NCBI GenBank assembly: GCA_041615815.1
Contig: JBFJCP010000043.1
Coordinates: forward strand, 1 to 27,662
Source: Gemmatimonadales bacterium
Lineage (GTDB): Bacteria; Gemmatimonadota; Gemmatimonadetes; Gemmatimonadales; GWC2-71-9
DNA length: 27,662 nt
Direction of reading: 5' to 3'
Shown here: positions 4,197 through 27,238 of the stretch, piece by piece
How the letters are laid out: each line of letters opens with the position of its first letter
How positions within the stretch are numbered: the stretch's first letter is position 1
The notes under the pieces: model-generated
The model's database searches: none
What the model saw: only the letters and a program-made list of their open reading frames with translations
What the model was told of the DNA's origin: nothing
Translations under genes and position numbers: made by a program

Positions 4197-6578
4197 ATGA
4201 GCATCGTACGCCCCGTGGTCGCGCTGACCATTCTCGCGGCGGCGCCGCTTCACGCCCAGCAGTTTGGCGCCTACGCAGCCACCCAAAACGGCGACATCCT
4301 GATTAGTGAGCCGGTGAAGCAGACCGAGCCCGCGACCGTCTACGTCTACCGGCGCAGCGCCGACGGCTGGACGCAAGCGGCTACCCTCATGGCTCCAACC
4401 CACGACGGCGGAGACTTCTTTGGCCGCTTCATCGCCACGGACGACCAGACGCTGATCGTGGGCAGTACGGCCTACGAAAACGCCGCGGGCGCCGCGTGGG
4501 TCTACCGCCGCCGCGGCGACACGTGGGAGCTCAAGGAAATGCTGCGGCCCGAGGACGTGCAACCGGGAGATTCGTTTGGCCGGTTCGGGCTCCTGCACGG
4601 GAATCTCCTGTTTGTGTCCTCGCTCGGGCACAACGAGGGTCGCGGAGCCATCTGGGTGTTTCAGCGCGACGCCGCCGGCGAGTGGACGCAGGAGGCCAAG
4701 CTGGTACCCGGTGATGAGATCACCCCCCAGGAATTCTTCGGCTGGTCGATGGCGTTCGACGGCGAACGCTTGCTGACCGGCGCGCTGCAGGCGAGCCGCG
4801 AGCTGCAGAACCGCGGCGCGGCGTACATCTTTCGCCGAAACGCGCCGGGCGATTGGGCTCTCGAGACACGGCTGACGCTCGGCGAGGAGGCGGAGCGCGG
4901 CGACGTGTTTGGCGCGGCCGTGGGCTGGCTCGACGGCCATGCGCTCGTTGGCGTCCCCGGACGGAACGACGATGTGGGCGAGGTTCGTGTGTACCACATG
5001 AGCCGCGGTGAGTGGGTGGAAAGCATGACGCTCAGTGCTCACGACCGGGTCTCCGACGCGGACTTCGGCAGCAGTCTGGCCTCGCGTGGCAACGAGCTGT
5101 GGGTGGGCGCACCGGGCGCCGACGGGGTGGGCCGCGTTTACCGCTTCGAGTTCGACGCCGAGACGGACCGGTTTGGCAACGTGAGCAAGATCGCGGGGCT
5201 CGAGGAGGACATTGGGGACGGTTTCGGCAGCACGATCACCCTAGCCGACGAGATTGCGATCGTGGGCTCCACGGGTGACGACTTCGGACTCGGCTCGGCC
5301 GTTATTCTGGAACGGGACGGCGGCGCCTGGCGCGCGACCGCAAAGCTGTACGGCCCCGACCCGGTGAGCCTCGAGCCCCTCGTGGCCGGAGAGATCAGCT
5401 GCGCCGAGGGGAAGGCGGATCAATTCGCGTGCAGTCAGGTGGACATTCTGTCATTCCTCCCGGTGCGCGACATCGGCGGCGGGCGCGGCGCCGAGACGAA
5501 CGACGTGTGGGGATGGACAGATCCCGAAACGCGACGGGAATACGCGATCGTGGGCCGCACGGACGGGACGGCGTTCATCGACGTGACGAAACCCGCGAGC
5601 CCCAAGTACCTCGGCAATCTCCCCAAGACCGCCGGATCGCGCGGCAACTCGTGGCGTGACATCAAGGTGTACGGCAATCACGCATTCATCGTGGCGGATG
5701 GCGCCGGCCGGCACGGGATGCAGGTGTTCGACCTCACACGTCTCCGGAACGTCTCGGGCGCGCCGGTCACGTTCGACGAGAACGCGCATTACGACGGCAT
5801 CGCTTCCGCACACAACATCGTCATCAACGAGAAGACGGGCTTTGCCTACACCGTGGGCTCGAACGGCGGTGGTGAAACGTGCGGTGGCGGACTCCACATG
5901 ATCGACATTCGGAATCCCACCAAGCCCACGTTCGCCGGCTGCTTTGCGGATTCGACCACGGGGCAGGCTGGAACAGGCTATTCGCACGACGCCATGTGCA
6001 TCGTGTACAATGGACCCGACACCGATCACGCCGGCAAAGAGATCTGCTTCGGCTCCAACGAGAACGCACTCTCGATCGCCGACGTCACGGACAAGAACAA
6101 CCCCGTACGGATCTCGTCGGCCACCTATCCCAACGTCGCCTATGCGCACCAGGGCTGGATCACCGAGGACCACAAGTACTTTTACATGAACGACGAGGGC
6201 GATGAGTCCAATGCCGTCCAGGCCGGCAAGCCGCTCCCCGGCACCCGAACACTGATCTGGGACGTGGAGGACCTCGACGACCCGATCATGATCAAGGAGC
6301 ACTTCGGGACTACGTTTACGATCGACCACAACCTGTACGTCAAGGGCAACCTGATGTACCAGTCGAACTACGTGAGCGGGCTCCGCATCCTCGACATCCG
6401 CGATCCCCAAAACCCGCGCGAGGTGGGCTATCTGGACACCGTGCCGTGGAGTGAAGAGGTGGAGTTTGACGGCTCGTGGAGCAACTACCCATTCTTCGAC
6501 AGCGGGACAATCGTGGTGTCGAGCGGCAAGGAGGGTGTGTTCTTCCTCAAGTACCGGCCGTTGGAGCTGGTTCCGTAG
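4197..6578 (+). CDS. secreted FG-GAP-repeat + choice-of-anchor B (LVIVD-like) domain protein
   Basis: Signal peptide MSIVRPVVALTILAAAPLHA, about 7 FG-GAP-like blades (DFFG, DSFG, EFFGWS, DVFGAAV, ADFGSSL, DGFGSTI), then NDVWGWTDP, WRDIKVY, HGMQVFDL, AHNIVIN, YAHQGW, DHNLYV and WSNYPFF. ATG at 4197 with GAGAGG RBS. Confidence 0.88.
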   Translation: MSIVRPVVALTILAAAPLHAQQFGAYAATQNGDILISEPVKQTEPATVYVYRRSADGWTQAATLMAPTHDGGDFFGRFIATDDQTLIVGSTAYENAAGAAWVYRRRGDTWELKEMLRPEDVQPGDSFGRFGLLHGNLLFVSSLGHNEGRGAIWVFQRDAAGEWTQEAKLVPGDEITPQEFFGWSMAFDGERLLTGALQASRELQNRGAAYIFRRNAPGDWALETRLTLGEEAERGDVFGAAVGWLDGHALVGVPGRNDDVGEVRVYHMSRGEWVESMTLSAHDRVSDADFGSSLASRGNELWVGAPGADGVGRVYRFEFDAETDRFGNVSKIAGLEEDIGDGFGSTITLADEIAIVGSTGDDFGLGSAVILERDGGAWRATAKLYGPDPVSLEPLVAGEISCAEGKADQFACSQVDILSFLPVRDIGGGRGAETNDVWGWTDPETRREYAIVGRTDGTAFIDVTKPASPKYLGNLPKTAGSRGNSWRDIKVYGNHAFIVADGAGRHGMQVFDLTRLRNVSGAPVTFDENAHYDGIASAHNIVINEKTGFAYTVGSNGGGETCGGGLHMIDIRNPTKPTFAGCFADSTTGQAGTGYSHDAMCIVYNGPDTDHAGKEICFGSNENALSIADVTDKNNPVRISSATYPNVAYAHQGWITEDHKYFYMNDEGDESNAVQAGKPLPGTRTLIWDVEDLDDPIMIKEHFGTTFTIDHNLYVKGNLMYQSNYVSGLRILDIRDPQNPREVGYLDTVPWSEEVEFDGSWSNYPFFDSGTIVVSSGKEGVFFLKYRPLELVP

Positions 6579-6770: not shown

Positions 6771-7433
6771 TTACCACGCGATGGCGTAATTCGAGAAGTG
6801 GCGTAACTCGGCCTTGAGCCACTGCCCGGCTTTGTCTACCGTCGTGGGGATCGACTTCCATTCCGAGTCGCGGTTGGGCTGGTACCAAACCTTCGGCTGT
6901 CCGTCCACACCGTCGAGATCGGCATACTTGGTCCAGACCCACAGCACCACCGGTCGTTTTCCGGTAAAGCTCGACCCGTGCGGCCCGAATTCGAACGAGA
7001 TGTACGTGCCATCCACGCGCACGGAGATCTCGACGGACTCACCGTCCGGTACCGGGTTGCCGTCGGCATCGACGAACTGAGCGCTCGACGGCACATCGAG
7101 CACCATGAAGTAGTTCCCGTCCTCGAAGAAGATGACGAAATTCTGCTTCCACCCTTGGTGCGCCACGAACGTGGTGTCGTAGGTCATGAGCGAGGGCGCC
7201 CCGGGGGCAAACCGCAATACGTGGGGGATACCATCCTCGCTGGTAGAGCCCGAGCTGCTGTCCTGGACGGTGCCTTCGGTGGCCCCACCGTCGGTACTGG
7301 CCGTTGTGGTGCTGCGTCGTCCACCTTTGGCGAACAGCGCCGATTGACCGCTGAGCTCCGGCTCCGAAATGTCACCACACGCCGCCAGCAGCATGGCGAG
7401 GCTCGCGGCGATGATTGATCTAGCTCTGAACAT
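6771..7433 (-). CDS. predicted lipoprotein of unknown function
   Basis: Lipobox LAAC after a hydrophobic signal, an S/T/G-rich linker, and a beta-rich domain ending LRHFSNYAIAW. GAGGAG RBS. Confidence 0.85.
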   Translation of the reverse strand: MFRARSIIAASLAMLLAACGDISEPELSGQSALFAKGGRRSTTTASTDGGATEGTVQDSSSGSTSEDGIPHVLRFAPGAPSLMTYDTTFVAHQGWKQNFVIFFEDGNYFMVLDVPSSAQFVDADGNPVPDGESVEISVRVDGTYISFEFGPHGSSFTGKRPVVLWVWTKYADLDGVDGQPKVWYQPNRDSEWKSIPTTVDKAGQWLKAELRHFSNYAIAW

Positions 7434-9314: not shown

Positions 9315-10262
9315 TCAATGGCAGACGTCGCTACCGGCATCTCGGAACGTTCCCGAGACCGGTATGAACTCCCAGTCGTAGCTGTCGGAATGCAAGGTGA
9401 ACTTGATCACCCCATAGGTGTCGTTGTACCGCACCTCGCTATTCGGTAGCGGCGTGTCGAACCCGTAGAGGCTCCTGCCCGCGTTTCCCACCACGAATTG
9501 CCGCACCCCAGCGTTCATATCGACCGTTTCGTCCGGCGCTTGTGGCATAAAACGCTCGTAGACGTGGTCGTGACCACCGACGACGATCTCGGCCCCGGCA
9601 TCGTAGAGCGCCTGAAACAGCGACGCCGTCTGGGACTGACTCCCGTGGTTGCTGGAGCTGCTGAAACGCGGACGGTGCATGTAGGCGATCGTGCACGTTC
9701 TGGTGGTGGCGGCGAGATCAGTACGCAGCCACAGCTCTTGAGGGGAGCCCGCGTCCATGCTGATTTCGCTGTTCAGTGCGATGACGTGCCACGCACCAAG
9801 GTCATAGCTGTAGTAGCCCTCGCCGCGCTCCCCCGCGTTCGCCCCGAAGTAGTCGAAGTATCCGGCCGCATCCGCCGTATGGTAGTCGTGATTTCCCGGC
9901 GACGGCCGTGTCCTGTCTCTATGGCGGCCCCACGAGGGCGCGTAGCAGTTGGCAAAATCGGTGGCGGTGCCATCGGGGTAGGCGTTGTCGCCCGCCGTGA
10001 ACACCGTTCCTGGAATGGTGTCCAGGATGAGGGCCGTCTCTTCGTCTCCACTCGAGCTGCACGATGCGATGTCGCCCGCCCCTACGAGTACCAGGCCAGC
10101 TTCCGGTGCACCCGGCCCGGCCACACCGGGATCGGCTTGGCAAGCGCCAACAAGCGGCAACGCCGCCAGCAGGAGAGGGTTGAGGCACCGGGTGCAAACG
10201 GGAACGAGACCAAACCGCATCACCAACCCCGGGGTAGTCGGATCCGGCCATTGAAGATCCAT
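9315..10262 (-). CDS. exported calcineurin-like metallophosphoesterase, possibly a lipoprotein
   Basis: GAGDIA, AGDNAY, PGNHDY, MHRP and GHDHVYER metal-binding motifs, plus a lipobox-like VGAC. The start may instead be 10220. Confidence 0.88.
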   Translation of the reverse strand: MDLQWPDPTTPGLVMRFGLVPVCTRCLNPLLLAALPLVGACQADPGVAGPGAPEAGLVLVGAGDIASCSSSGDEETALILDTIPGTVFTAGDNAYPDGTATDFANCYAPSWGRHRDRTRPSPGNHDYHTADAAGYFDYFGANAGERGEGYYSYDLGAWHVIALNSEISMDAGSPQELWLRTDLAATTRTCTIAYMHRPRFSSSSNHGSQSQTASLFQALYDAGAEIVVGGHDHVYERFMPQAPDETVDMNAGVRQFVVGNAGRSLYGFDTPLPNSEVRYNDTYGVIKFTLHSDSYDWEFIPVSGTFRDAGSDVCH

Positions 10263-10544: not shown

Positions 10545-10733
10545 ATGGCAAAGGAGCTGCGCTGTGGTGACATGATGCCGGGCTGCAAGTTCGTGGCCAC
10601 GGCGGAAACCGAGGAGGAGTTGCTGAAGAAGGTCACCAAGCACGCCAAGGAAGCGCACAACATCAAAGAGATCACACCCGAGCTGAGCAAGAAGGTCAAG
10701 GGTGCGATTCGAACCGTCGCGAAAGTGAAGTAG
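10545..10733 (+). CDS. DUF1059 small metal-binding-like protein
   Basis: MAKELRCGDMMPGCKFVATAETEEELL....HAKEAH pattern. GGAGG/AAGGA upstream. Confidence 0.9.
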   Translation: MAKELRCGDMMPGCKFVATAETEEELLKKVTKHAKEAHNIKEITPELSKKVKGAIRTVAKVK

Positions 10734-10754
10734 CGACCGAAGAGCGCAACGACG

Positions 10755-10785
10755 GGGGGAGGCGTCACCGCCTCCCCCTTTTGTT
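10755..10785 (+). terminator. intrinsic terminator
   Basis: GGGGGAGGCG-tcac-CGCCTCCCCC followed by TTTTGTT. Confidence 0.85.
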
Positions 10786-10821: not shown

Positions 10822-11982
10822 CTACGGAACCACCACCACCCCCACCGCACCGCCGAACTCCGTTTGCTCGCGTCTCGATCCCGCCGGCACCTGCCACGCA
10901 CCACCGTTGACCCGCACGTTCACCCGGTACACCCCGGGGGCGAGCACGACGGTAGTCTCCCAAGTCGACGATCCAACCTTCGCGAGTGCCACCACCTGCC
11001 AGTCAGTGAAATCTCCCATCAGCTCAACCGATGTCGCGCCGTCGACGTGCACGCGGAGTGCGCGCGTACGTCCATACGGTGGGATCTCGAGCCGGGCGGG
11101 ACTCGTGTCACCCGAGGCGGCATCTCGCCGAGCCGCCCGCAGCAACGCACCCGTGATCGTGGGTACCGGAGAGCGCTGGGATCCAAAGACGTTCAACCGC
11201 AGTCCGATGGTCGCGTACTTCGCGGCGAGGACACGACGCATGGGATCCGACGGATAACTGCCGCCGCCCAGTGAGAGGGTGATCCGCTCGTTGAGCGCAA
11301 CCAGCACCGACGCGTCGCCAAACACTCCCGTCCGCGCCTCGCCCACGCCTTCGCCACTTCTGGCCCACGGGCGCGCTATCAGCCGACCCTCGAGCTCGAC
11401 GCGCGGTCCCGTCCACCGCACCGCGCCCAACAGATCCATATAGCCGTCACCGCTGAGCCACGTGCCGGTGACCGTGCCCGCCAGCGCGACCCGATCCCGC
11501 ACGCTCCACCCTCCCACCGCGAGCTCGAACGGCACGCCGGAGGATACGCCGCCGAATGACCCCCCTCCAGTGCCGCTCACCCACCCGCCGGTGCGCTCAC
11601 CATAGAAGTGAATGCGTGTGCGTGCCAGGAAGTGCCCGTTGCCCGGCTCGTCGGCGTACTTGGAGGCGCCCACCGAGCCCGAGAGTTCGACCCGCCACCA
11701 CTCGCGCGGAGGCGCGAGCCATGCGGCGGCCGCCGTTCCTTGAAAAATCTGATTGCCGCTTTCAAAGATGGTCCAGGATCCCTGGCCACCGACCGACAGG
11801 TTGGAAATATCGAATGTGAGGGCAGGCGCGAGCACGGCGGCTCCCGAGACGAGAAAGCCGTCATATTCGACAACGGACGCACCGATATCTAGGGTCCCCG
11901 CCGTCTGTCCTACCAGTGGAGACCCGGAGGAAAGAAGCCAGGCCGCGACCGTCGCTGCGGCGCGCCGGCAGCGACGGGTCAC
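10822..11982 (-). CDS. predicted outer-membrane beta-barrel protein with C-terminal CBM48/AMPK-like glycogen-binding domain
   Basis: Signal-like N-terminus, then many amphipathic Gly/aromatic strands, then ATSVELMGDFTDW...W...LAPGVYRVNVRVNGGAW...EFGG. The GTG start at 11982 is inferred. Confidence 0.78.
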   Translation of the reverse strand: MTRRCRRAAATVAAWLLSSGSPLVGQTAGTLDIGASVVEYDGFLVSGAAVLAPALTFDISNLSVGGQGSWTIFESGNQIFQGTAAAAWLAPPREWWRVELSGSVGASKYADEPGNGHFLARTRIHFYGERTGGWVSGTGGGSFGGVSSGVPFELAVGGWSVRDRVALAGTVTGTWLSGDGYMDLLGAVRWTGPRVELEGRLIARPWARSGEGVGEARTGVFGDASVLVALNERITLSLGGGSYPSDPMRRVLAAKYATIGLRLNVFGSQRSPVPTITGALLRAARRDAASGDTSPARLEIPPYGRTRALRVHVDGATSVELMGDFTDWQVVALAKVGSSTWETTVVLAPGVYRVNVRVNGGAWQVPAGSRREQTEFGGAVGVVVVP

Positions 11983-11995
11983 CCGGGATGCGACA

Positions 11996-12652
11996 CTACG
12001 GTTTTCGCTTTCGAGGTGGTTTGGTCGTCGATCCTGTTTCGCCTCCTGGACCGGCGGCGAGATCGGTCGCCGCCTGAAGGCGAACACCCAGCGCAGCCGC
12101 CGGCGATGCGCCGAGCGCGATGTCGCGCTGGACGTTGCGCCGGAACGCGACATAGTCGGCATCCTGCGCATCTCTGGCCAAAGCCATCACCGCGGTGATC
12201 GCCGTGTCCACCGGAACGCCTGCAGCGACGAGGTCCGCCAAGACCGCGGCGGCAACCGTCAACGGTTGTCCGGGACGCAGCTCCTTGAGCCGTGCTAGAT
12301 CCCCCTCCACCGCACCCGCCCTGAGGGCGCTGGCGCCCGCTGTGAGCTCTGCCAAGGAAGCGGTCTCGCCAAACGCCTCACGCGCAACCCCCAACTCTCC
12401 ACGCAGCCGCGAGACCGCTGACACGATCAGTTGCGGCGCGGCACCCTTGGCGGCACCCTCGAGCGCTCGGTCCACGAGTGGTTCCGTGGGAAGCCCCGCA
12501 GCACGCGCCTCGTCCAGGATCGTGTTCACCTGAGCCCGAGCAGCGTCCGGTAGCCGTCCCTCGAGCCGGGGCTCCTGGGCATGCATGTTACCCGGCGCCA
12601 ACCAGAGCATCCCGCCGAGCACCATGGTGAGAGTTTCAAGCCGCATAGTCAT
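11996..12652 (-). CDS. exported Ala/Leu-rich helical protein of unknown function
   Basis: Signal peptide ending MHA/QE and a GLPTEPLVDRALEGAAKG motif. ATGA overlap with the upstream gene. Confidence 0.8.
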   Translation of the reverse strand: MTMRLETLTMVLGGMLWLAPGNMHAQEPRLEGRLPDAARAQVNTILDEARAAGLPTEPLVDRALEGAAKGAAPQLIVSAVSRLRGELGVAREAFGETASLAELTAGASALRAGAVEGDLARLKELRPGQPLTVAAAVLADLVAAGVPVDTAITAVMALARDAQDADYVAFRRNVQRDIALGASPAAALGVRLQAATDLAAGPGGETGSTTKPPRKRKP

Positions 12653-13215
12653 GCGCCTCCGATCGTGACGACGGCGTTCGAGCGTCCAAACTCGTCTTCC
12701 AGCGTGGGGGCGTTGGGATCACCGAGCCACGTGGTGCCATCTACCACAAACGAGTACCGATACCGACCAGGCTCGAGCGGGACAGTCACCCACCACACGC
12801 CGTCTCCTGCTTCCTTCTCCATGGGGGTGGCGGTGAGGTTCCAGTCATTGAAATCCCCCACCAGGGTCACCGAACCCGCTTCCGGCGCCACCAACACGAA
12901 CTGAATCGGCTGGGTGAACTGCGCGGTGGCGATTCCCTGCACCGGAGCCGGTGTTCCCCTCGGCCCCGCGAACCAGCTTCCCGCAAGCACGACGGCGGTG
13001 AGTCCCGCTGCCATCGCCAGCCCGCCGAGCGGGCTCAGCCGGATCGTGCGGGGACGCCGGAGCCACTCGAGCACCGTTGCCCTGCCCGCCGTGCCGTCTG
13101 GCATAGGGAGCGCCTCGATCTCGGACATCACCCGACTCGTGAGGCTCGGGTCGATCCGCACCGGCTCCTTCAGCGCCTGGACCGCACGTGCAATGGTGTC
13201 GTCGTGCTCAGCCAC
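12649..13215 (-). CDS. putative anti-sigma factor: cytoplasmic N-terminus, one TM helix, extracytoplasmic CBM48 (isoamylase early-set/AMPK-beta-like) domain
   Basis: Overlaps the sigma stop by 8 nt. TM segment PLGGLAMAAGLTAVVLAGSWF, then FVLVAPEAGSVTLVGDFNDW...GVW...LEPGRYRYSFVVDG..W..DP....DEFGRSNAVV. Confidence 0.8.
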   Translation of the reverse strand: MAEHDDTIARAVQALKEPVRIDPSLTSRVMSEIEALPMPDGTAGRATVLEWLRRPRTIRLSPLGGLAMAAGLTAVVLAGSWFAGPRGTPAPVQGIATAQFTQPIQFVLVAPEAGSVTLVGDFNDWNLTATPMEKEAGDGVWWVTVPLEPGRYRYSFVVDGTTWLGDPNAPTLEDEFGRSNAVVTIGGA

Positions 13216-13753
13216 GGACTGTCTCCGTCAATAATCGCCGCAACTCTTCTCGCGCTCGAAAGACTCGCATCTTGAGCGCCGGAATACGCGTACCTGTCAC
13301 CTGCTGCATTTCCTCATAACTCAACTCTTCCACGTGCTTCAGGAGAAACGCTTCTCGCTGTTCCTCGGGCAGCTGGTCCAGCGCCCACATGATCGCCTCG
13401 CGGCTCGCGTCGCGGTCCTCTGTGTGCTCCACCGAGGCACTGGCCACGGCGATGTCGTCAGTCACGACCAGCTTTTGTCTCCGGGTCCGCTTCGCCGCAT
13501 AGGTGCGGCACCGGTTCACCAAGATTCCGAAGAGCCAGGCTCCGAAGCGCTCCGGATCGGTGCAGCGAGCGAGCGAGCGATAGCCGCGGACGAAGGTGTC
13601 CTGGAGCGCATCCTCGGCGTCGGCCACGTCGCCGAGCATGCGCACGGCGTAGCGGCCCAACCGATCGCGATATCGCTCCACCAACCGGGCGTACACCTGG
13701 CGCTCTCCCGCCAGGACGCGACGCACCAGGAGCCCGTCGGTGTCCTCCCTCAC
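13208..13753 (-). CDS. ECF (sigma-70 group 4) RNA polymerase sigma factor
   Basis: Region 2 DAEDALQDTFVRGY...FGAWLFGILVNRC and region 4 LPEEQREAFLLKHVEELSYEEM....G....LKMRVFRAR. GTG at 13753 is the likely leaderless start. Confidence 0.93.
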   Translation of the reverse strand: MREDTDGLLVRRVLAGERQVYARLVERYRDRLGRYAVRMLGDVADAEDALQDTFVRGYRSLARCTDPERFGAWLFGILVNRCRTYAAKRTRRQKLVVTDDIAVASASVEHTEDRDASREAIMWALDQLPEEQREAFLLKHVEELSYEEMQQVTGTRIPALKMRVFRAREELRRLLTETVRG

Positions 13754-13758
13754 ACTAT

Positions 13759-13789
13759 GGGATACCCGGGCTCGGGGGCCGACGTCACA
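13759..13789 (-). promoter_or_regulatory. putative ECF promoter, autoregulatory copy
   Basis: Minus strand reads TGTGAC-gtcggcccccgagcccg-GGTATCCC-atagt-GTG. Confidence 0.7.
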
Positions 13790-13914
13790 GTCGGACCCGA
13801 ACACTCCGCGGGCGCTCGCCGATAGGAAACCAGTAAGCCCAAGGTGGCCACTCTCTTAGCGTGACCCCTTCAAGTCTACGTTGCGCGGCGCCGGGGTCAA
13901 CGACGTGGGGCCCA

Positions 13915-13945
13915 TGTGACTCCTCGCCCGATACCGAGGTATCCC
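13915..13945 (+). promoter_or_regulatory. putative ECF promoter, target-operon copy
   Basis: TGTGAC-tcctcgcccgataccga-GGTATCCC has the same boxes and 17-nt spacer as the minus-strand copy. Confidence 0.7.
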
Positions 13946-13977
13946 CTAATAGAGGCCTTCCGACCGAGGTGTTCCAA

Positions 13978-15480
13978 ATGAAACGCGTCCTTGTCTTGTC
14001 AGGGCTGTTCTTGGTCTGCGCGACGACCGCGTCCGCGCAACTGATCCCCATCCGCACGGTCCCGATCTCACAGTCCCACCAGTTCGAGATCTTGCCATCG
14101 CAGACGTTCGGCATGGCAGGGGTGTCGATCGCGATCCCGGACTCGTTGCTCGATCCGTTCGACAACCCAGCCAAGGGAGCGCGGCTCCGTGCAGCGCGGT
14201 TCTTCGGCACACCGAGTGTCTACAGTGTCACGAGCAAAGCCGGTGGCGGGCGCACCTTCCCGCTGGGCGCCATGATCAAGACGGGGCCGTGGTTCGGCGG
14301 GCTCTCAGTGGCGCTCCAGGAAGTCGATTTCAGCCAGCGGAACGGGTTCAATGACATCATCCCCTTCGCCTGCCCCAACTGCGGCGGTCAGCCGGTGGAC
14401 TTCTTTGGGCCGGTGGAGCGCTCGCACGGTAACGCCTACCTGTTTGCCATGTTCGGCCGGGATCTTCCCGCGGCAGGGCTTTCGGTGGGGGGCAGCTTCG
14501 CCTACTCCGAGCTGAACGCCGTGGACGGCGTGGACCTGCTCTACGCGGGTAGTGCGCGGATCAAACAGTATGGCGACGCCGTGGATATCCGGTTCGGCGT
14601 GCTGAAGGAGTGGTCGAACGGTCGATCGCTCGAGGCGCTGGTCCTGCACAACCGGTTCGGGATGACGCACGACGTGTTCTACCTGGACGGGTTCTGGGAT
14701 CCCGACACGCAACAGTTCGCACAGCGCCCGCGCTTGGAGCAGAACCTGGACCGGACCCGCACGTGGGGGCTCCATACCGAGTACGAGATCCCGCTCACCA
14801 CCTCCGGGTGGCGGATGGGCTGGCTCGCAACCGTCAATCGGATGTCGCATCCCAAGATTCCCAACTACGAGATCCAAAACATCCCGCGGGACCCCGGCAA
14901 CTCCAACGCGTTCAACGTGGGTGTCGGCGTGTCGCGGACGTACAACCACTCGACGTTCGGCGTGGACGTCATCTACGAGCCGATCTGGAGCCACACCTGG
15001 GCGGACTCGGAGGACCCGGTCGAGACGGACGCGGGAGAGATCATTCCGCCGGGCGGCAAGACCATCGAGAACCGATTTCGCTTTTCCAACGCGCTGTTCC
15101 GAATGGGCTTCGGACAACAGATCGCCTTTGGCGAGACCGGCACTTCGGCCGGTATTCAGTTCGGGTTGGCTCTCCGCACCATTCACTACTGGCTGAACCA
15201 GGACGACCACGTGTCCCTGACCTCGCGGAATCTCGAGGAGCGATGGGTGGAGTGGACACCCTCGTGGGGGGTGAGTGTCCGGTTTCCGGAGCTCGAAGTC
15301 GGGTATCGCGGTCGGGTGACCAACGGGACCGGCCGGCCGGGGGTGGCAAACAACCCCGGTATCCTGGTGGCCGATGCCGCGGGAGGGAGCAACATCCTCG
15401 TGGCGCCCAGTGGTCCGCTGACGTTGGACGAGGTCCGGGTAGTCACGCACCAGTTCTCCATCTCTCTACCGCTACGCTGA
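13978..15480 (+). CDS. predicted outer-membrane beta-barrel protein of unknown function
   Basis: Signal peptide MKRVLVLSGLFLVCATTASA, a FGMAGVSIA....DPFDNPA N-terminus reminiscent of FadL/PorV-type barrels, alternating amphipathic strands, and C-terminal HQFSISLPLR. GAGGT RBS. Confidence 0.8.
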   Translation: MKRVLVLSGLFLVCATTASAQLIPIRTVPISQSHQFEILPSQTFGMAGVSIAIPDSLLDPFDNPAKGARLRAARFFGTPSVYSVTSKAGGGRTFPLGAMIKTGPWFGGLSVALQEVDFSQRNGFNDIIPFACPNCGGQPVDFFGPVERSHGNAYLFAMFGRDLPAAGLSVGGSFAYSELNAVDGVDLLYAGSARIKQYGDAVDIRFGVLKEWSNGRSLEALVLHNRFGMTHDVFYLDGFWDPDTQQFAQRPRLEQNLDRTRTWGLHTEYEIPLTTSGWRMGWLATVNRMSHPKIPNYEIQNIPRDPGNSNAFNVGVGVSRTYNHSTFGVDVIYEPIWSHTWADSEDPVETDAGEIIPPGGKTIENRFRFSNALFRMGFGQQIAFGETGTSAGIQFGLALRTIHYWLNQDDHVSLTSRNLEERWVEWTPSWGVSVRFPELEVGYRGRVTNGTGRPGVANNPGILVADAAGGSNILVAPSGPLTLDEVRVVTHQFSISLPLR

Positions 15481-15496
15481 GCGAGGAGCGTCGACG

Positions 15497-16849
15497 ATGA
15501 CACGGTTTGCATGTTCGTTGTTCCTCGGCGTGCTCCTGCTCGCCGGCTGCGACTCGATCACGACCACGGAGCCGCCACGCCAGACCATCGATGCCGAATT
15601 GCGTCAGAACATGACCCAATGGGGTGTGATCCCCATCGGTTCCATGCAAGCGCAGGACGCAGCAAAGGTCGCGCTGGGGCGCGCGCTGTTCTTCGACAAG
15701 GTCCTGAGTGGGAACCGGGACATCGCGTGTGCCTCGTGCCACGAGCCGAACAACGGCTTGGGCGACGGGTTGTCTCTGGCAGTGGGCACCGGTGGCACGG
15801 GGATTGGCCCGGCGAGGACGTTGGGGCCGGGACGGCAGTTCGTCCCGCGCAACGCACCGTCGCTCCTCAACTCGGGGCTCGGGCTGTTCTATATGTTCTG
15901 GGACGGCAGGCTCACCGGGTTCGGGTCCGGTCCGTTCTTCAACCAGCCGGACACGCTGCTTCTCTCAGGATTCCCCAACATCCTGGCCGCGCAAGCCATG
16001 CTCCCGGTGCTCAACCGGGTGGAGATGCGCGGTACGGCGGGTGATACGGACGTGTTCGGCAATCCCAACGAGCTGGCGGAATTCGGCGACGACCAGCGCG
16101 AGGCGATCTGGCGGGCAATCATGGACCGACTGCGGGGAATCCCGGAGTACGTCCAGCTGTTCAATGCGGCCTTTCCCAATGTCTCGACACAAACGCTCAG
16201 CTTCCGGCACGCTGCGGAGGCGCTGGCGACGTTCCAGCGGGACGCTTTCATCAAGACGGACTCACCGTTCGATCGTTACCTCGATCGCGACGATGCGGCG
16301 CTCACGCTCGAACAGAAACGCGGCGCCTTGCTCTTTTTTGGCGAGGCCCAGTGTGTCACCTGTCACAGCGGTCCGTTTCTCGGTGCTCAGAGCTTTGCCA
16401 ACGTTGGCGCGCCGCAGATCGGTCCCGGCATCGGGAAACAGCTGCCGCTCGATCGCGGGCGGGGCGAGATCGACGATTTCGAGTTCTACCAATTCGCCTT
16501 CCGGGTCGCGCCGCTCCGCAACGTGGAATTGACAGCGCCCTACATGCACAGCGGTGCCTATCCCACGCTCGAGGCAGTGGTGGAGCACTACAACGATGTT
16601 CCGACAGCGATGCGCAGTTTTGACGTCATGCAGCTGGATCCGGCGTTTCGCGACCAGCACCATGGGGACGATGCGACGATCAACACGGTGATGCCCACGG
16701 TGGATTTCCGCTTCACCCAACGGCTCGACTTCAGCGAGACCGAGAAGCGTGCGTTGGTGGCGTTCTTGAAATCCTTGACGGATCCTGCGGCGCGGAACCT
16801 GAGTTCAGTGATTCCCTCACGGGTGCCGAGCGGGTTGCCGGTGCGGTAG
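15497..16849 (+). CDS. diheme cytochrome c peroxidase / MauG family lipoprotein
   Basis: Lipobox LAGC, LGRALFFDKVLSGNRDIACASCH, RNAPSL, FWDGR, GALLFFGEAQCVTCHSG, FRVAPLRNVELTAPYMHSG and LVAFLKSLTD. Confidence 0.93.
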   Translation: MTRFACSLFLGVLLLAGCDSITTTEPPRQTIDAELRQNMTQWGVIPIGSMQAQDAAKVALGRALFFDKVLSGNRDIACASCHEPNNGLGDGLSLAVGTGGTGIGPARTLGPGRQFVPRNAPSLLNSGLGLFYMFWDGRLTGFGSGPFFNQPDTLLLSGFPNILAAQAMLPVLNRVEMRGTAGDTDVFGNPNELAEFGDDQREAIWRAIMDRLRGIPEYVQLFNAAFPNVSTQTLSFRHAAEALATFQRDAFIKTDSPFDRYLDRDDAALTLEQKRGALLFFGEAQCVTCHSGPFLGAQSFANVGAPQIGPGIGKQLPLDRGRGEIDDFEFYQFAFRVAPLRNVELTAPYMHSGAYPTLEAVVEHYNDVPTAMRSFDVMQLDPAFRDQHHGDDATINTVMPTVDFRFTQRLDFSETEKRALVAFLKSLTDPAARNLSSVIPSRVPSGLPVR

Positions 16850-18493: not shown

Positions 18494-19384
18494 TCAAGAG
18501 GTCCTTTGTCTACTCGCTCGAACGCGTGTTGGCCGACGTGCTGATCCTTCGCCCCGGACGATCAGCACGCATCCGGGAAACCCCGAGGCGATCGACTCCA
18601 ACGCTTCATTCGAGACCAGATCACTCTCGATTGGGAGGATCAGCGTGTTGGCACCGATCGAAGCGGCTACCTGCGCCGCACGCGACACGTCCTGTGGCTG
18701 GAGGTGTCGGAAGTTGGCTTCGTCACCGGCGGGCCCCAATTGTCCGATTGCCGTTCGGACGAGCGCCCGTGCGGCCTGCTCCGTGGGCGCGACGCAGAAT
18801 ACGTGCACACCCTGAGTTCGCCCACGAGCAATGGACAGAGCGGTCTCGAGCGCCTCGACAGCGGTGGCGGTGCCGTCGAAGATGACGGCAACGGGACCAA
18901 CCGATTTCGCGCCGGGTGGAAGCAGGAGGATTCGTCCGCGTGCCGTGACGGCGACCCGCCGCGCGGTCGAGCCGAGACCGCGCGCGGGACCCGCCAACCG
19001 ACCGCGGATACCGAGGCTCAAGAGGTCGTCTACCGTCAGATCACGGACCAGCTGCTCCGCCACGATGCCGCGCGTGATGCGAAACGACGAGCGGATACCC
19101 AAGCGTTGGGCCATCTCGGCGAGTGTCGCGCGGGCTTGCTCCGCCTGCAGTCGCAATTGACGCTCCAGCTCGCCGCTCGTGAGCGGGCGCGACACGGCAA
19201 AACTGGCTCCCACCTGGCGGGCAAACGGGAGGGAGCTCCATCGCAGGAGGTTGATGTCTTCGACGAAGAGCCCCAGGACCTCGGCCTCGAGCGCTGCAGC
19301 GAGCTCGACGGCCGCTTCCAACGCCGCCACGCTGCCAGGAGAGGCATCGATCGCGATCACGATCCGGCGAATGGGCATGGTCAT
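18494..19384 (-). CDS. universal stress protein (tandem USP domains)
   Basis: IRRIVIAIDASPGS..ALE.A, GLGSTARRV, and a second domain VAVIFDGT. ATGA overlap with the Lon-like gene. Confidence 0.85.
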   Translation of the reverse strand: MTMPIRRIVIAIDASPGSVAALEAAVELAAALEAEVLGLFVEDINLLRWSSLPFARQVGASFAVSRPLTSGELERQLRLQAEQARATLAEMAQRLGIRSSFRITRGIVAEQLVRDLTVDDLLSLGIRGRLAGPARGLGSTARRVAVTARGRILLLPPGAKSVGPVAVIFDGTATAVEALETALSIARGRTQGVHVFCVAPTEQAARALVRTAIGQLGPAGDEANFRHLQPQDVSRAAQVAASIGANTLILPIESDLVSNEALESIASGFPGCVLIVRGEGSARRPTRVRASRQRTS

Positions 19385-21900
19385 GCTTCCGGAGGCGTCG
19401 GTTGACCGCCGCCACCGTCCCCCACGCCGTCACCGTCGCCATCCTTGCCTTCGAGTAACACCGGCGTGACCTCGAGGGTCGGAATCCCGAACTCTTTCCG
19501 CTGCAGTGCCAGCTCCAGGAGCCGAGCTTCGACGAAGTGATTGAAGGTGCCGTCGGGGTACTTCCCCTGTTCGTCACGCTCTCCGGCCGGTAGACCGGTC
19601 AACAGTTCGATCCCCTCATCGACGGTCTCGATGGCGGCGATATGGAACCGATGCTGCTTCACCGCCTCGATGACATCCTCCCGCAGCATCAGGTGCTCGC
19701 TATTGCTGCGGGGGATGATGACGCCCTGCGTACCGGTGAGTCCTCTCGCCGCGCAGATGTCGAAGAAGCCTTCGATCTTTTCGTTGATGGCACCGACCGG
19801 CTGCACCTCGCCGTGCTGATTGACCGAGCCCGTGACGGCCATGGATTGCCTGAGCGGCACGCCGGCAATGGCTGACAGCAGCGCGAAGAGCTCTGCACAG
19901 GACGCGCTGTCACCCTCGACTCCCGAATACGACTGCTCGAACACCAGACTGGCGGACAGAGAGAGGGGATGATCGGGAACGTACCGCGCGCCGAGGTAAC
20001 CCGAGAGGATCAACACCCCCTTGGAGTGGACCGGGCCTCCGAGTTTCACCTCGCGCTCGATATCGACCAGCTCCCCCCCGCCCAGTCGCACGCGCGCCGT
20101 AATCCGACTCGGCCGGCCAAATATGAAATTGCCGAGTGCGAGCGCCGAGAGGCCGTTGACCTGTCCGACGGTGGCACCATCGGTGTCGATCTTGATCGTT
20201 CCGCGGGTAATCTCTTCGTACACTCGTTCGCGTACCCGATCAGCCCGTTCGACCTGCGCATCGATGGCTCGTTGAACGTGCGCCCCCGTGACCGCCGCGT
20301 CGCGCGCCCTCGCAGCCCAGAAGTCCGCTTCGCGAAGGAGATCGGAGAGCGAGCGCATGTGTGTGGTGAGCTTGCGCTGGTCCGATGCCATCCTGGCGCT
20401 CTGTTCCAGCACCCGGACGACAGCCGATCGGTCGAACGCTCGGAGGTTCTCTCGTTGCACCACGGAAGCGATGAGCTGCGTGTATGCACGCACGCCACTG
20501 TCGGACGCATCCATCACGTCATTGAAGTCCGCTGCGACTTTGAAGAGCTCCTCGAACTCGGGGTCGTAATAACACAGGAGATAGTAGAGGAGCCGCTCAC
20601 CGCTGAGCACCACCGTCACATCCAGATCGACGGGCTCCGGCTCGAGCGTCACGGTACTCACCAAGCTCAGTGCCTGGCCCAGCGACTCGATCCGGAGCTT
20701 CTTGGACCGGAGGGCTCGCTTGAGTGCATCCCATGCGTAGGGGGTCCGCAGGAGCTTGTTGATCTCGAGCAGGAGGAAACCGCCGTTCGCCCGATGCAAG
20801 GCCCCCGCTCTGATGAGCGTGAAGTCCGTCGAGAGAGCGCCAAAGCGCGAGACGTGCTCGGTCCGACCGATCAGGTTGTCGTAGGTGGGGTGGTCTTCCG
20901 CAATGACCGGTGCGCCCTTGGTGTCACGATTGTCCACGAGGACATTGATCTTGTAGCGACTGAGGGGCTGCGGCTCCGCACGCCCGAGACCGCCCGCCTC
21001 GAGCAGAGCTGCGGGAAACGGTTGGTCCGGACTCACGATGCTTCGCGCGTTGCGAATGATGTCGTCCTGCACGGTATCGAGATACTCGAGGACGGCGTCG
21101 AGCCCAGCGAACTTGCTGCGAAGCTCGTCGATGAGGTGACCCACGGCGAGCTTGGCGATCTCCTGATCCAGCTCGCGGACCCGCTCACGTCGCTCTCGGT
21201 CCCACCGGGGCACCTGCCGCAGCGTCCGATGCACCTCTTCTTCGAACGATTCGACCAACGACTCGATGCGTTTCCTCTCCGCATCGGGTAGCTTGTCGAA
21301 CTCTCCACCGGACATCACCTCTCCCTCCTGCACCGGTGCAAACGCCATCCCGACCGGCGTGCGGATCAGCGTGAGCCCGGCGTCCGTGGCTCGGTGCTCG
21401 ATATCCTGCAGTGCCTGTTGTGGCCGCTCCTTGAACTCGTCCTCGATGACCTTGCGCCGCATCTGGTATTCCTCGCTCTCAAACGCACTCGTGAGTACGT
21501 TGCGCAACTCCTCCACGAGACGCTCCATTTCACCATGCAGCGTGGTCCCCGTTCCCGCCGGGACCACGAGAAGACGCGGACGCTGGGGATTGTCGAAATT
21601 GTGGACGTAGCAGAAATCCGGTGGCACGCCTTTGGACGCGGCGTGTTTCGTCAGATAGTGCCACACCAGTGAGCGCTTCCCCGTACCAGGGGGACCCAAG
21701 GCAAAAATGTTGTAGCCGTCGCGAGCGATGCCGATGCCGAACTGCACCGAGGCCTCGGCCCGCCCCTGCCCCACAATCTCCGTCAGCTCCGTCACGTCAT
21801 CGGTGGTGTCGAACGGAACGATGCTCGGGTCGTAGCGGCGCCGCAGCGCTTCGGGCTCCAGCTCGAGTTTGCCCCTCGTTTTCACCAGCTCGTGCGCCAT
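19381..21900 (-). CDS. Lon-like ATP-dependent protease (AAA_32 + S16 Lon_C, LonB/LonC-type)
   Basis: Walker A GPPGTGK, AGALHRANGG, GQVNGL, HSKGVLIL, EQSY.GVEGDSAS (catalytic Ser) and GAINEKIEGFF (catalytic Lys). ATG at 21900. Confidence 0.93.
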   Translation of the reverse strand: MAHELVKTRGKLELEPEALRRRYDPSIVPFDTTDDVTELTEIVGQGRAEASVQFGIGIARDGYNIFALGPPGTGKRSLVWHYLTKHAASKGVPPDFCYVHNFDNPQRPRLLVVPAGTGTTLHGEMERLVEELRNVLTSAFESEEYQMRRKVIEDEFKERPQQALQDIEHRATDAGLTLIRTPVGMAFAPVQEGEVMSGGEFDKLPDAERKRIESLVESFEEEVHRTLRQVPRWDRERRERVRELDQEIAKLAVGHLIDELRSKFAGLDAVLEYLDTVQDDIIRNARSIVSPDQPFPAALLEAGGLGRAEPQPLSRYKINVLVDNRDTKGAPVIAEDHPTYDNLIGRTEHVSRFGALSTDFTLIRAGALHRANGGFLLLEINKLLRTPYAWDALKRALRSKKLRIESLGQALSLVSTVTLEPEPVDLDVTVVLSGERLLYYLLCYYDPEFEELFKVAADFNDVMDASDSGVRAYTQLIASVVQRENLRAFDRSAVVRVLEQSARMASDQRKLTTHMRSLSDLLREADFWAARARDAAVTGAHVQRAIDAQVERADRVRERVYEEITRGTIKIDTDGATVGQVNGLSALALGNFIFGRPSRITARVRLGGGELVDIEREVKLGGPVHSKGVLILSGYLGARYVPDHPLSLSASLVFEQSYSGVEGDSASCAELFALLSAIAGVPLRQSMAVTGSVNQHGEVQPVGAINEKIEGFFDICAARGLTGTQGVIIPRSNSEHLMLREDVIEAVKQHRFHIAAIETVDEGIELLTGLPAGERDEQGKYPDGTFNHFVEARLLELALQRKEFGIPTLEVTPVLLEGKDGDGDGVGDGGGGQPTPPEA

Positions 21901-22202
21901 GGCATTTCCCGGTTCTCGATTCTCGAGGGCCCACTCGCTCGTCAACACCATCGAGCTCGACGCACCATTGGCGACCAGGATTGCGCCGAGAAACGAGCAG
22001 TGGGGCGAATGGGATCATCATCGCGTGCGGTTCGTGAAGGAGCGGTGAAGGCGCCTTCAAACGATGGTTCAGGTTCGCTTCAGAGGGGTTTCAGTGCTGC
22101 TCGTTCAGCTTAAACGGTACAGGCCTCGTCATATCTCCACTCACGGCGCAAACCGAAAAGGGGTCAGTTGTTTACTCGCAGCGCTCGGGCAGCACATCTG
22201 AC

Positions 22203-23826: not shown

Positions 23827-25758
23827 CTATCCAACGGGGGCTTCAGCAGGCGCGCGCGTTCTCTGGTCTGCGGGAGGCATTGCCGGCAGAACATCGCCGC
23901 GCACCAATACGTCCAGCTCGTCCCGCCCCAAGGTCTCACGCTCGATCAGCGCGCGAGCGATTGCCTCGAGGGTATCCCGGTTTTCCGTCAATAGCCGCCG
24001 TGCGGTTTCGTACGCCTCATTGAGTACCCGTCCGATTTCCCGATCCACGAGGTCCGCCATACGCTCGGAGACTTCATGGTGCTGCGCGACCTCACGGCCC
24101 AAGAACAGCACCTCGTCGCGCCCACCGACGGTCATCGGACCCACGGCCTCGCTCATGCCGAACTGGGTCACCATGCGGCGCGCCAGCTCCGTGGCCTGCT
24201 GGAAATCGTGCGCCGCTCCCGTGGTCACCTTGTCGGCGCCGAACTCGAGTTCCTCCGCCACGCGCCCACCATACGCCACCACCAACCGCCCGCGGATATA
24301 CTCCTTCGTGTAGTTGTGCCGGTCTTCCTCCGGGAGGGACGCCGTGAGGCCGAGGGCCCGCCCGCGGGGGACGATGGTGACCTTGTGGACGGGATCCAGT
24401 CCCGGGAGCACGAGGTTGAGGAGCGCGTGTCCCGCTTCGTGATACGCCGTCAGCCGTCGCTCTTCCTCTGTGAGCACCAGGCTCCTCCGCTCCACACCGA
24501 GCATCACCTTGTCCTTGGCATCCTCGAAGTCCCGCCGGTCCACCTGCCCCTTGTTGCGGCGGGCGGCGAGCAGGGCGGCCTCGTTCACGATATTGGCAAG
24601 GTCGGCCCCGGCGAGACCCGGCGTCCCGCGGGCGACGACCGCGAGATCCACGTCGGCGGCCAGCGGGATCCTTCTGGCGTGCACCCGCAGGATCATCTCT
24701 CGACCCCGTACATCCGGCATGTCCACCACGACTTGCCGGTCGAAGCGTCCCGGACGCAGCAGCGCCGGGTCCAAAACGTCTGGACGATTGGTCGCGGACA
24801 GAAGGATCACTCCCTCGTTGGGCTCGAATCCATCCAGCTCCACGAGGAGCTGATTCAATGTTTGTTCTCGTTCATCGTGCCCCCCGCCGAGCCCGGCTCC
24901 TCGCAGTCGTCCAACGGCGTCGAGCTCATCGATGAAGATGATGCACGGGGCGTTGGTCTTTCCCTGCGCGAAGAGGTTGCGGACGCGGGCGGCACCCACA
25001 CCTACGAACATCTCCACGAAGTCGGACCCCGAGATCGAGAAGAACGGCACCCCGGCCTCCCCGGCCACTGCACGGGCCAGAAGCGTCTTGCCGGTGCCGG
25101 GTGGGCCCACCAACAGCACGCCCTTGGGAAGCCGTCCGCCCAGTCGCTGAAAGCGCGACGGATCCTTGAGAAAGGCGACGATCTCCTGGAGTTCGGTCTT
25201 CGCCTCGTCCGCACCGGCCACATCGGCGAACGTCACTTTGGGTCGTTCGCCGGACACCTGCTGCGGCGTCAACTTCCCGAATGACAGAGCGCGGTCGCCG
25301 CCCATACGCATTTGGCGGCTGAGCACCATCCAGAACGCGATGATGAGGACCCACGGCAGGAGCCAGTACAGGGCGGTCGCCCAGCCGGACCCACCTTTCT
25401 TCCCTTCCACCGTCACGTCCTGTTCCTCGAGACGGGCCACGAGCGACGCCGGGTCGTCGAAGGGAAGCACGGTCCGAAAGCGGGAGTAGGCCTGCCCCTC
25501 GATGGTCACCGAGTCGCGGAATTCCCCGCGAATCTCGTTTTCATCCGGAGTGACCTCGACTGCCCGGAGATTGTGCGCTTCGATCTGAACCTGGAGCTCC
25601 GAATACGTGATCTCCGCAGTGCCCTCATCCCGCCGAACCAACTGGATCACGAGCGCCGAACCCGCCAAGATGACGATCCACAGCACGGCACCCCGAAACC
25701 CCATACGCTTCTGTGGCGTAACCGAACGCTTCTGTGGCGTAGGCGGACGAGCGGTCAT
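23827..25758 (-). CDS. ftsH: ATP-dependent zinc metalloprotease FtsH
   Basis: Two TM helices, Walker A GPPGTGKT, Walker [20 protein letters not shown], zinc motif HEAGH and GRVAEE. Confidence 0.97.
25705..25741. repeat. 16-bp perfect direct repeat with 21-nt period at the 5' end of ftsH
   Basis: ACGCTTCTGTGGCGTA at 25705-25720 and 25726-25741, encoding TPQKR twice. Confidence 0.9.
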
Positions 25759-25867: not shown

Positions 25868-27238
25868 CTACCGCCCGGACGCCTGCGCGATCTCGGCTCG
25901 GAACGCGTGGAGCGCCGGACTCAGTGTGACCCGGTACGGGGGATCAGCCTGCGCCTTGTCCAGCAGGTGCTCCGGCAGAGCCGCGAGCGCCCTCTGGGCG
26001 TGGGCGCGAGCCTCAGCGAGCGTGCGCCTCCCGGCGGCGGTACGGCGCCCCTGGTGCATCACTTGCTCCAGAAGCGGCTGGCCCACAACGGATTCGCCAA
26101 ATCGGCCGATGATGTCTTCGACCGCCCGTCCGTCCTCCACGACGCGAAACACCTGCTTCTGCCCCGGCAGGATCCCTTTGCCGGGTGACAGCTTGAGCCG
26201 TCCTTTTCCGCCGTAGGCGGCCAGCTTGTACGCGATGTCGAGCGCCGGTGCGTCCGGCGAGACACCCATCCGCGTGCCCACCCCAAAGCCCGTGATCGGC
26301 GCCCCTCGCTCGAGCAACGAGGCGATCTCGTGTTCGTCCAGCCCACCGCTGGCGAAGATCTCGACGCGCTCGAGCCCCGCATCGTCGAGGATCCGTCTTG
26401 CGGCGAATGCGAGCTCGCACAGGTCTCCCGAATCGAGTCGGACGCCACGAACGGCGAAACTCGAGCCCAGTTCACGAGCGAGCGCGGCAACTCGGCGCAC
26501 TCCTTCCAGCGTGTCGTAGGTGTCCACCAGCAGAATCGTCGAGGGATAGAGCGCCGCGAACTCACGAAAGGCATCGAGTTCGCGTTCGTGGGCCTGGATG
26601 TAACTGTGCGCCATGGTTCCGGCCACGGGCACGCCGTAGAGGCGTCCGGCGAGCACGTTGCTCGTTGCCGTTACCCCAGCCACATGAAACGCGCGCGCGG
26701 ATTTGATGCCGGCATCCAACCCGTGCATGCGACGCAACCCAAAATCCACCACCGCCCGTCCCCTCGCGGCACGCACCACCCGGGCCGCTTTCGACGCGAT
26801 GACGGTCTGGAAGTGCACCTGGTTCATGACGAACGTCTCGGCGAGCTGTGCTTCCGGCAACGGCGCCACGACCTCGAGCAGCGGCTCGTCCCCGAATATC
26901 GGCGTGCCTTCCGGAACCGCATGCACGTCTCCCGTGAAGCAGAAGCCGGACAGCCAATCGAGGAACGCAGGCTGGAAGAAGTCCAGCGACGAGAGATACT
27001 TCAGCGCTTCCTCCTCGAACCGGAGCCGTTCCAGGTAGCTGAGCGCGTCGTCGAGGCCGCAAGCCAGGAGATAATTGCGCTCTGGCGGAAGGCGCCGAAC
27101 GTGCAGCGTGAACACGGCCGGCTCCAGCATCCCCTCCCGCCAATAGGCCTGGAGCATGGTCAGCTCGTATAGGTCCGTGAAGAGCGCGAGGTTGCGGTCG
27201 ACGACCCCGCGAGTTTCACTCACGGCGCGAATTGACAA
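25868..27238 (-). CDS. pncB: nicotinate phosphoribosyltransferase
   Basis: LFTDLYELTM, DFGLRRMHG, TSNVLAG, GTMAHS, LLVDTYDT, GVRLDSGD, ASGGLDE, GFGVGT and YKL motifs. Exact start uncertain. Confidence 0.95.
   Translation of the reverse strand: MSIRAVSETRGVVDRNLALFTDLYELTMLQAYWREGMLEPAVFTLHVRRLPPERNYLLACGLDDALSYLERLRFEEEALKYLSSLDFFQPAFLDWLSGFCFTGDVHAVPEGTPIFGDEPLLEVVAPLPEAQLAETFVMNQVHFQTVIASKAARVVRAARGRAVVDFGLRRMHGLDAGIKSARAFHVAGVTATSNVLAGRLYGVPVAGTMAHSYIQAHERELDAFREFAALYPSTILLVDTYDTLEGVRRVAALARELGSSFAVRGVRLDSGDLCELAFAARRILDDAGLERVEIFASGGLDEHEIASLLERGAPITGFGVGTRMGVSPDAPALDIAYKLAAYGGKGRLKLSPGKGILPGQKQVFRVVEDGRAVEDIIGRFGESVVGQPLLEQVMHQGRRTAAGRRTLAEARAHAQRALAALPEHLLDKAQADPPYRVTLSPALHAFRAEIAQASGR

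Follow-up and report, generated by a model that had tools for sequence, protein, structure and literature searches.

A predicted ECF sigma factor switch with CBM48 domains and its candidate lipoprotein regulon in Gemmatimonadota

Gene content and promoter motif of the locus

The DNA analysed here, a stretch of 27,662 nucleotides (nt) from a Gemmatimonadales bacterium (GenBank assembly GCA_041615815.1, contig JBFJCP010000043.1; the window), is one whole 27.7-kb contig of a 4.19-Mb source genome (G000). It contains a gene for a sigma factor of the extracytoplasmic function (ECF) type, followed on the minus strand by genes for a predicted anti-sigma factor, an exported helical protein and a predicted barrel protein, and faced by a two-gene operon on the plus strand. 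All six predicted open reading frames were confirmed, and the gene overlaps, gene order and promoter-like motif in both arms, reported in a first-pass annotation of the window, were present as claimed. We conclude that the locus is a real and widespread variant of a signalling design already known. The function that we propose, with middling confidence and from sequence comparison, is that of a four-gene ECF envelope switch that would answer attack or damage, and transcribe its own operon and a scattered lipoprotein regulon from GTGAC-N17-GGT(A/C)T promoters. The features of the locus are as follows.

13208..13753, minus strand: ECF sigma factor, 181 amino acids (aa); its leaderless GTG start lies 7 nt past the -10 element
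12649..13215, minus strand: predicted anti-sigma factor, one transmembrane helix, periplasmic CBM48
11996..12652, minus strand: exported helical protein
10822..11982, minus strand: predicted outer-membrane 14-strand barrel, linker and C-terminal CBM48
13761..13789, minus strand: predicted autoregulatory ECF promoter, TGTGAC-N17-GGTATC
13915..13943, plus strand: second promoter copy, for the target operon; exact match
13978..15480, plus strand: target gene 1, outer-membrane beta-barrel
15497..16849, plus strand: target gene 2, lipoprotein di-haem enzyme, bCcP/MauG superfamily
10754..10779, plus strand: GC-rich hairpin, likely terminator, between a convergent DUF1059 gene and the core operon

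The sigma and anti-sigma genes overlap by 8 nt (13208-13215), and the anti-sigma and helical genes share an ATGA overlap (12649-12652). The most likely start of the sigma gene is GTG 13753 and not 13804, a position that agrees with relatives. For the barrel-CBM48 gene, the most likely start is GTG 11982 (386 aa), which sits 13 nt past the stop of the helical gene, and not 12171.

The motif TGTGAC-N17-GGTATC occurs exactly twice in the source genome, once in each arm of the locus; by chance, 0.28 copies would be expected in the whole genome at a single spacing, and about 1e-5 for each site in the intergenic stretch. In 38 of 39 loci a relaxed form of the motif was found immediately upstream of the sigma start, where one would look for an autoregulatory ECF promoter without a leader; the motif is likely the promoter of this sigma. 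Wherever the plus-strand barrel and MauG-like gene pair lies, the motif precedes it (nine of nine pairs with upstream DNA). Before barrels from genomes lacking the helical gene it was seen once in nine cases, and that one (G117) belongs to a MauG pair. The barrel and di-haem peroxidase operon is likely one regulon member of the switch, and the earlier proposal of an autoregulated ECF/anti-sigma pair, with CBM48 domains facing the periplasm, that controls the divergent operon through the shared motif is supported.

In the published group description, the promoter predicted for subgroup ECF278s1 is GTGAC (-35) and GTATA (-10) (Casas-Pastor et al. 2021, PMC7826278). The -35 element of the present motif is identical, while the -10 element is GTATC in the source genome and GTATA, GTATT or GTCTY in relatives. 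In many loci (e.g. L021:8121-8145), back-to-back motif copies 10-40 nt apart serve the sigma gene and a divergent gene; the two copies in the window are 126 nt apart. A sigma-70-like site at 13900-13873 was at chance level and was rejected.

Conservation and composition of the four-gene core

Forty-three loci encoding the barrel-CBM48 protein were fetched, 42 of them labelled Gemmatimonadota and one Bacillota; the latter (L036) has the full core and the motif, and may reflect transfer or misbinning. The order sigma, anti-sigma-CBM48, helical, barrel-CBM48 was kept in 35 of the 43 loci. The other eight end at a contig edge, and in one of these (L037) the helical gene follows the barrel. Rearranged cores, with the barrel-CBM48 gene ahead of the sigma or helical gene, were seen in L158, L191, L208, L217, L037 and L171, the last of which has no helical gene between anti-sigma and barrel. 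About 60% of the sampled Gemmatimonadota genomes have the system, as judged by the helical gene (90 of 151), and related anti-sigmas occur elsewhere.

The first-pass annotation had gone further and proposed a dedicated six-gene surface-signalling module for inducing the haem enzyme. Direct adjacency of all six genes was indeed observed in five loci (G000, G067, L026, L030 and L140) and near-adjacency in two more (G112, with a 1.3-kb gap, and G001, with 5.4 kb), and the motif travels with the barrel and MauG-like pair. However, direct adjacency occurs in only two of the 151 genomes, and most system-positive genomes lack the pair: the plus-strand barrel was found in 32 of the 151, and a MauG-like gene directly follows it in 10 of 30 barrel loci examined (39 matches). 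The pair often lies elsewhere, on another contig or at a distance, as in G002, G005, G016, G022 and G038, and in other genomes the divergent slot is taken by a barrel paralogue that has no MauG partner, by DUF4382 lipoproteins, by a serpin or by a DUF4397 protein. We therefore take the unit to be the four-gene core plus a variable target. The conserved neighbourhood expected for all six genes was thus borne out for the core order, but the plus-strand pair proved movable; as a general model the six-gene module is largely refuted, and we consider it very unlikely.

The sigma protein matches Pfam Sigma70_r2 and r4_2 and TIGR02937 above cut-off. It has regions 2 and 4.2, lacks region 3 and is about 180 aa long, as is characteristic of ECF sigma factors. 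The anti-sigma protein contains a CBM_48/AMPK1_CBM domain above the Pfam cut-off (PF16561, 44.9 bits versus 26.8) and a single hydrophobic segment (19-residue windows starting at 60-66); the domain order suggests that the CBM48, which is C-terminal to the transmembrane helix, is periplasmic. A plasmid search with the anti-sigma returned no match.

A distant anti-sigma is encoded in a locus of 30% GC, and seven of the 54 relatives of that protein combine a zf-HC2 domain with the same CBM48. Residues 6-37 of the window family profile-match the end of the relatives' zinc-finger domain (probability 93.7; score 34.4 versus a maximum of 9.4 in 30 shuffles), while upstream of the matched segment there are only about 5 residues, compared with 40 in the zinc-finger relatives. 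In class I anti-sigmas, as described in PMC7406223, helix 4 binds sigma region 2 and helix 1 binds region 4. A complete four-helix class I domain with helix 1 is absent here; helix 4, the region 2 binder, is recognised through the profile match, and its binding is predicted only. Because residues 6-37 match the end of the relatives' zinc-finger domain, we read the anti-sigma as a truncated class I domain with helices 3-4 only, which by its sequence keeps the region-2-binding helix and is without the region-4-binding one. It resembles the class I proteins RseA, RsiW and RskA, as presented in the same source (PMC7406223), in its last two helices, single transmembrane helix and co-translation with the sigma, but it lacks helices 1-2 and the zinc site, and its periplasmic part is a CBM48. 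The 30%-GC locus itself (L201:5059-9048) encodes a sigma, a zinc-finger anti-sigma-CBM48 and three exported proteins; no motif was seen in it, and it is a variant outside the high-GC group. Two of its exported proteins gave weak profile matches to halves of the helical protein (probabilities 1.0 and 12.6), which were not counted.

The helical protein has no Pfam or NCBIfam match, and a sequence search of solved structures matched only a designed helical barrel. Its signal peptide, which ends in A-x-A-Q, is conserved. The family is large (2622 clusters at E<=0.001), and among the best 150 of these clusters each of the five representatives that exceed 500 residues is a helical-barrel-CBM48 fusion in which the N-terminus of the barrel protein itself is missing. 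The fusions tie the helical protein to the outer-membrane unit.

An AlphaFold2 model of the barrel-CBM48 protein (pLDDT 84.6) consists of 14 strands, a loose linker and the CBM. The second CBM48 claimed at its C-terminus falls below the Pfam cut-off (21.1 versus 26.8 bits), but the claim held in the model, where this domain superposes on the AMPK beta-2 CBM (VIA Z 11.2, root-mean-square deviation 1.7, 79 residues). The closest barrel was OmpG by Foldseek, and by VIA the cyclodextrin porin CymA (Z 18.5) and OmpG (Z 18.3), which are tied.

These features bear on a nutrient-sensing alternative, in which maltodextrin or cyclodextrin enters the barrel, binds the periplasmic CBM48s and induces genes for alpha-glucan use. 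A comparable role, glycogen sensing, is proposed in the published description of ECF278s1 (PMC7826278). The top VIA match of the barrel model to CymA would fit; however, CymA also heads the comparison for the plus-strand barrel, which is unrelated, and is level with OmpG. The match is therefore generic and silent on substrate, and it was dropped as evidence of sugar transport. The glycogen-binding residues of the AMPK CBM, the W100/W133 stacking pair, K126 and N150 (as given in PMC2642990 and PMC4032982), were compared with both domains. The stacking pair is present in both: W125 in 60 of 60 anti-sigmas and W163 in 53 of 60 (Phe in six more), and W328 and W363 in 33 of 33 barrel CBMs. The K126 and N150 contacts are not kept as in AMPK. 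The Lys126 equivalent, against a nutrient function, is missing from all 60 anti-sigmas and all 33 barrel CBMs; the Asn150 equivalent, in its favour, is present in 41 of 60 anti-sigmas, while barrel CBMs have Gly or Ala at the matching place. With the stacking tryptophans retained, the cue may be a glycan.

The predicted regulon and the target operon

Motif sites were next tallied in relatives. In six relatives, 43 sites comprised 5 sigma promoters, 6 before barrels, 18 before lipoproteins, 1 before a small exported protein, 12 with no target and 1 off-contig; this tally was corrected by hand, a script having first called 27 of the 43 sites as preceding exported proteins. With the pattern displaced by one base as a control, none of 17 sites lay before an exported protein. 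A held-out set drew on five further genomes, picked because each has at least six sites, and covered 37 of their 39 sites; here the script called 19 lipoproteins, 3 sigmas, 7 signal peptides and 8 with none; inspection by eye resolved the seven signal-peptide calls into 3 lipoproteins, 1 barrel and 3 false calls. The two sites left out were the sigma and barrel promoters of G144, and two of the held-out genomes (G175 and G179) are outside the set in which the helical gene was sought. None of the 16 distinct motif sites in five genomes that lack this gene precedes an exported protein. As background, the source genome gave 51 of 3000 positions drawn at random and 4 of 161 sites with a wrong spacer.

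Clustering of 41 target proteins gave 8 serpins (by Pfam), 8 members of a family with an SRCP motif, 7 DUF4382 proteins and 2 BP74_N proteins; singletons include DUF6174, RCC1 and PD40 proteins. The EEGTEAAA hinge is kept in the two serpins inspected. The SRCP-motif family, of lipoproteins of ~145 aa, recurs behind the motif in L097, L104, L129, L138, L301, L305, L307 and L312, and the members scanned have no Pfam or NCBIfam match. The association with the promoter provides a first functional context for bacterial lipoprotein serpins, DUF4382, DUF6174, BP74_N and this unnamed lipoprotein family.

A weight-matrix scan of the source genome revealed 9 sites at 18 bits or more, compared with 2.8 expected; the top match is inside a gene. 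The motif precedes two lipoprotein genes, one of an unnamed family and one DUF6174-like, at C7:114350 (plus strand) and C52:9887 (minus strand). Both are probable regulon members; gene and motif are conserved in G001 and G003.

Among the targets we identified no gene for sugar use, be it a glycosidase or a sugar transporter, and neither of the two GH13 genes of the source genome has a site with fewer than two mismatches directly upstream. Starch foraging is therefore disfavoured. One good site in the source genome (C22:54445, minus strand; L335) falls between genes in a sugar-gene cluster, which would favour nutrient sensing, but no target was found for it. An exported GH13 gene is about 3 kb away with an opposite-strand gene between, and the proposed GH13 link is unsupported. 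Taken with the residues and barrel models described above, nutrient sensing is an unlikely explanation of the system. Another intergenic site (C17:33438, plus strand; L337) is a few hundred bases upstream of an apparent exopolysaccharide sugar-transferase cluster, a possible long-leader target.

In the target operon of the window, the di-haem protein matches CCP_MauG above cut-off and has a lipobox (Cys18) and CXXCH motifs at 78-82 and 286-290. The two c-haem motifs, Trp bridge and distal Glu/Gln of the bCcP/MauG superfamily are all present, and W135, Q166, E176 and Y365 are invariant in eight of eight members. In PDB 6E1C, which we take to be MbnH, the residue aligned with Y365 is a Tyr, presumably the haem ligand of that enzyme. 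The enzyme is probably of the His/Tyr (MauG/MbnH/BthA-like) type, with Tyr365 as the predicted ligand. According to the account in PMC6405878, MauG and BthA owe their bis-Fe(IV) state to His/Tyr ligation, and the window protein resembles the MauG, MbnH and BthA enzymes treated there in its two CXXCH motifs, inter-haem Trp, distal Gln/Glu and a Tyr at the expected position of the second-haem ligand. It differs in being a lipoprotein, and falls below the NCBIfam cut-offs for MauG, MbnH and TIGR03981; there is no Mau or Mbn substrate gene nearby, and it is paired with a barrel under predicted ECF control.

That barrel had no solved relative by sequence and no plasmid match. The nearest clusters by atlas features are auto-named FadL/TodX, and no Toluene_X match was found in 15 members, which gave weak BamG/PorV matches; the BamG match was to the N-terminus, in 4 of the 15 (best E 0.008). 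Its AlphaFold2 model has a barrel fold with at least 15 strands at low confidence (pLDDT 59), in which a hatch is not resolved. From these sequence and model comparisons the protein may, weakly, be called FadL/BamG-like.

BamG, in the description given in PMC12611786, docks the lipidated tail of the lipoprotein BamH, and here, too, a barrel gene is paired with a lipoprotein gene, with the weak N-terminal match. The likeness is limited: the BamG match is far below cut-off (10 bits versus 250 for this protein), and there is no BamA link here. This comparison, together with the fact that the targets are almost all lipoproteins or barrels, favours a response to lipoprotein or outer-membrane biogenesis, in which the outer-membrane unit reports assembly or export and the FadL-like barrel anchors lipoproteins as BamG does BamH. 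However, we identified no target gene for a chaperone, a protease or a Bam or Lol component, and the FadL assignment of the target barrel is unproven. We consider such a response quite unlikely.

Proposed mechanism and relation to known systems

In the envelope switch that we propose, the short N-terminal domain of the anti-sigma would hold sigma region 2 at the inner membrane. The helical protein may act in the periplasm with the barrel-CBM48 protein, as an outer-membrane sensor or a second brake, and would normally shield or tether the anti-sigma CBM48, as RseB does with RseA. A signal at the outer-membrane unit, possibly alpha-glucan on the two-Trp platform, would release the anti-sigma, which could then undergo intramembrane proteolysis; the genome encodes an M50 peptidase of the RseP type. 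The freed sigma would then induce its own operon and protective surface proteins, among which the peroxidase may clear H2O2 from the envelope or make use of it there, perhaps while bound to the co-transcribed barrel.

Several observations weigh against an answer to attack or damage. Most targets have no known function, and 'defence' is therefore inferred from the serpins and one peroxidase. Since no serpin or DUF4382 homologue was found in the source genome, the protease-defence reading rests on relatives; of the nine sites of the source genome, four have convincing targets (the sigma, the barrel and two lipoproteins) and five have none. The held-out genomes are site-rich by choice, and because the genomes are related and the signal-peptide calls come from a crude rule of our own making, the lipoprotein association is a strong enrichment and not a formal test. 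Paralogous systems in some genomes could share the motif. The helical-barrel-CBM48 fusions are known as gene calls and not as DNA, and two of them have partial barrels. Finally, both tryptophans are kept in each CBM48, which fits real glycan binding.

Danger-signal sensing would reconcile the kept Trp platform with a regulon of serpins and a peroxidase without catabolic genes. The CBM48s would bind alpha-glucan as a cue of lysis, in the form of glycogen fragments let out by burst neighbours or through a leak in the cell's own membrane, and protective lipoproteins would be the response. The loss of the Lys126 equivalent and the many targets of no known function speak against it, and we regard it as improbable. 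A particular trans-envelope form, in which glycogen fragments from lysed cells pass the barrel and are handed between the CBM48s gated by the helical protein, is quite improbable. If true, such a danger sensor would switch on serpins at the surface, a peroxidase of the bis-Fe(IV) type and lipoproteins of no named function across an abundant, little-studied phylum. Should the CBM48s prove to dock proteins or to sense danger, a fold familiar from glycogen metabolism and AMPK would have a new use. The defined promoter and target list make the system testable by reporter.

SigI/RsgI pairs sense polysaccharide, and those of Clostridium thermocellum share with the window system an anti-sigma with an extracytoplasmic carbohydrate-binding module. 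They differ from it in their sigma and CBM families, Gram-positive envelope and cellulosomal-enzyme targets, while the window system has no identified catabolic targets.

The closest system in print is ECF278s1, for which the group description gives a one-transmembrane anti-sigma at +1 with a periplasmic AMPK glycogen-recognition domain, and proposes glycogen sensing (PMC7826278). Compared by that description, the window system matches in the one-transmembrane anti-sigma at +1 and the C-terminal CBM, and its motif is close to the promoter predicted there. The group lists only Desulfovibrio and Syntrophobacter (s1) and Chloracidobacterium (s2) and no Gemmatimonadota, and its text mentions neither a helical protein nor a barrel-CBM48 nor a regulon, and no studied member (PMC7826278). 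ECF25, which in the same classification lists Gemmatimonadetes (s4), has an anti-sigma with a zinc domain, DUF4384 or DUF4349, and a promoter, GGAAC/GTC, given for s1/s2 only, with no particulars for s4 (PMC7826278); the promoter motif and anti-sigma domains of the window system differ from these.

The literature searched contained classification work only, with no experimental study of the system. To that extent the first-pass statement that no characterised system has this architecture stands, but the sigma/anti-sigma design and the GTGAC promoter were already predicted for ECF278s1 (PMC7826278, group description). The new parts are the lipoprotein regulon, the helical-barrel-CBM48 fusions and the truncated class I anti-sigma domain.

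Other genes of the window were also considered. The small DUF1059 protein gene (10545-10733, plus strand), convergent on the core operon, is not kept beside the core in the loci examined. The motif is absent upstream of three further genes, which encode a calcineurin-like phosphoesterase with a lipobox-like signal (9315-10262, minus strand), a lipoprotein of no named family (6771-7433, minus strand) and an FG-GAP/LVIVD repeat protein (4197-6578, plus strand). By sequence reading, a Lon-like ATP-dependent protease (19381-21951), FtsH (23827-25758) and nicotinate phosphoribosyltransferase (25868-27238), all on the minus strand, are ordinary neighbours.

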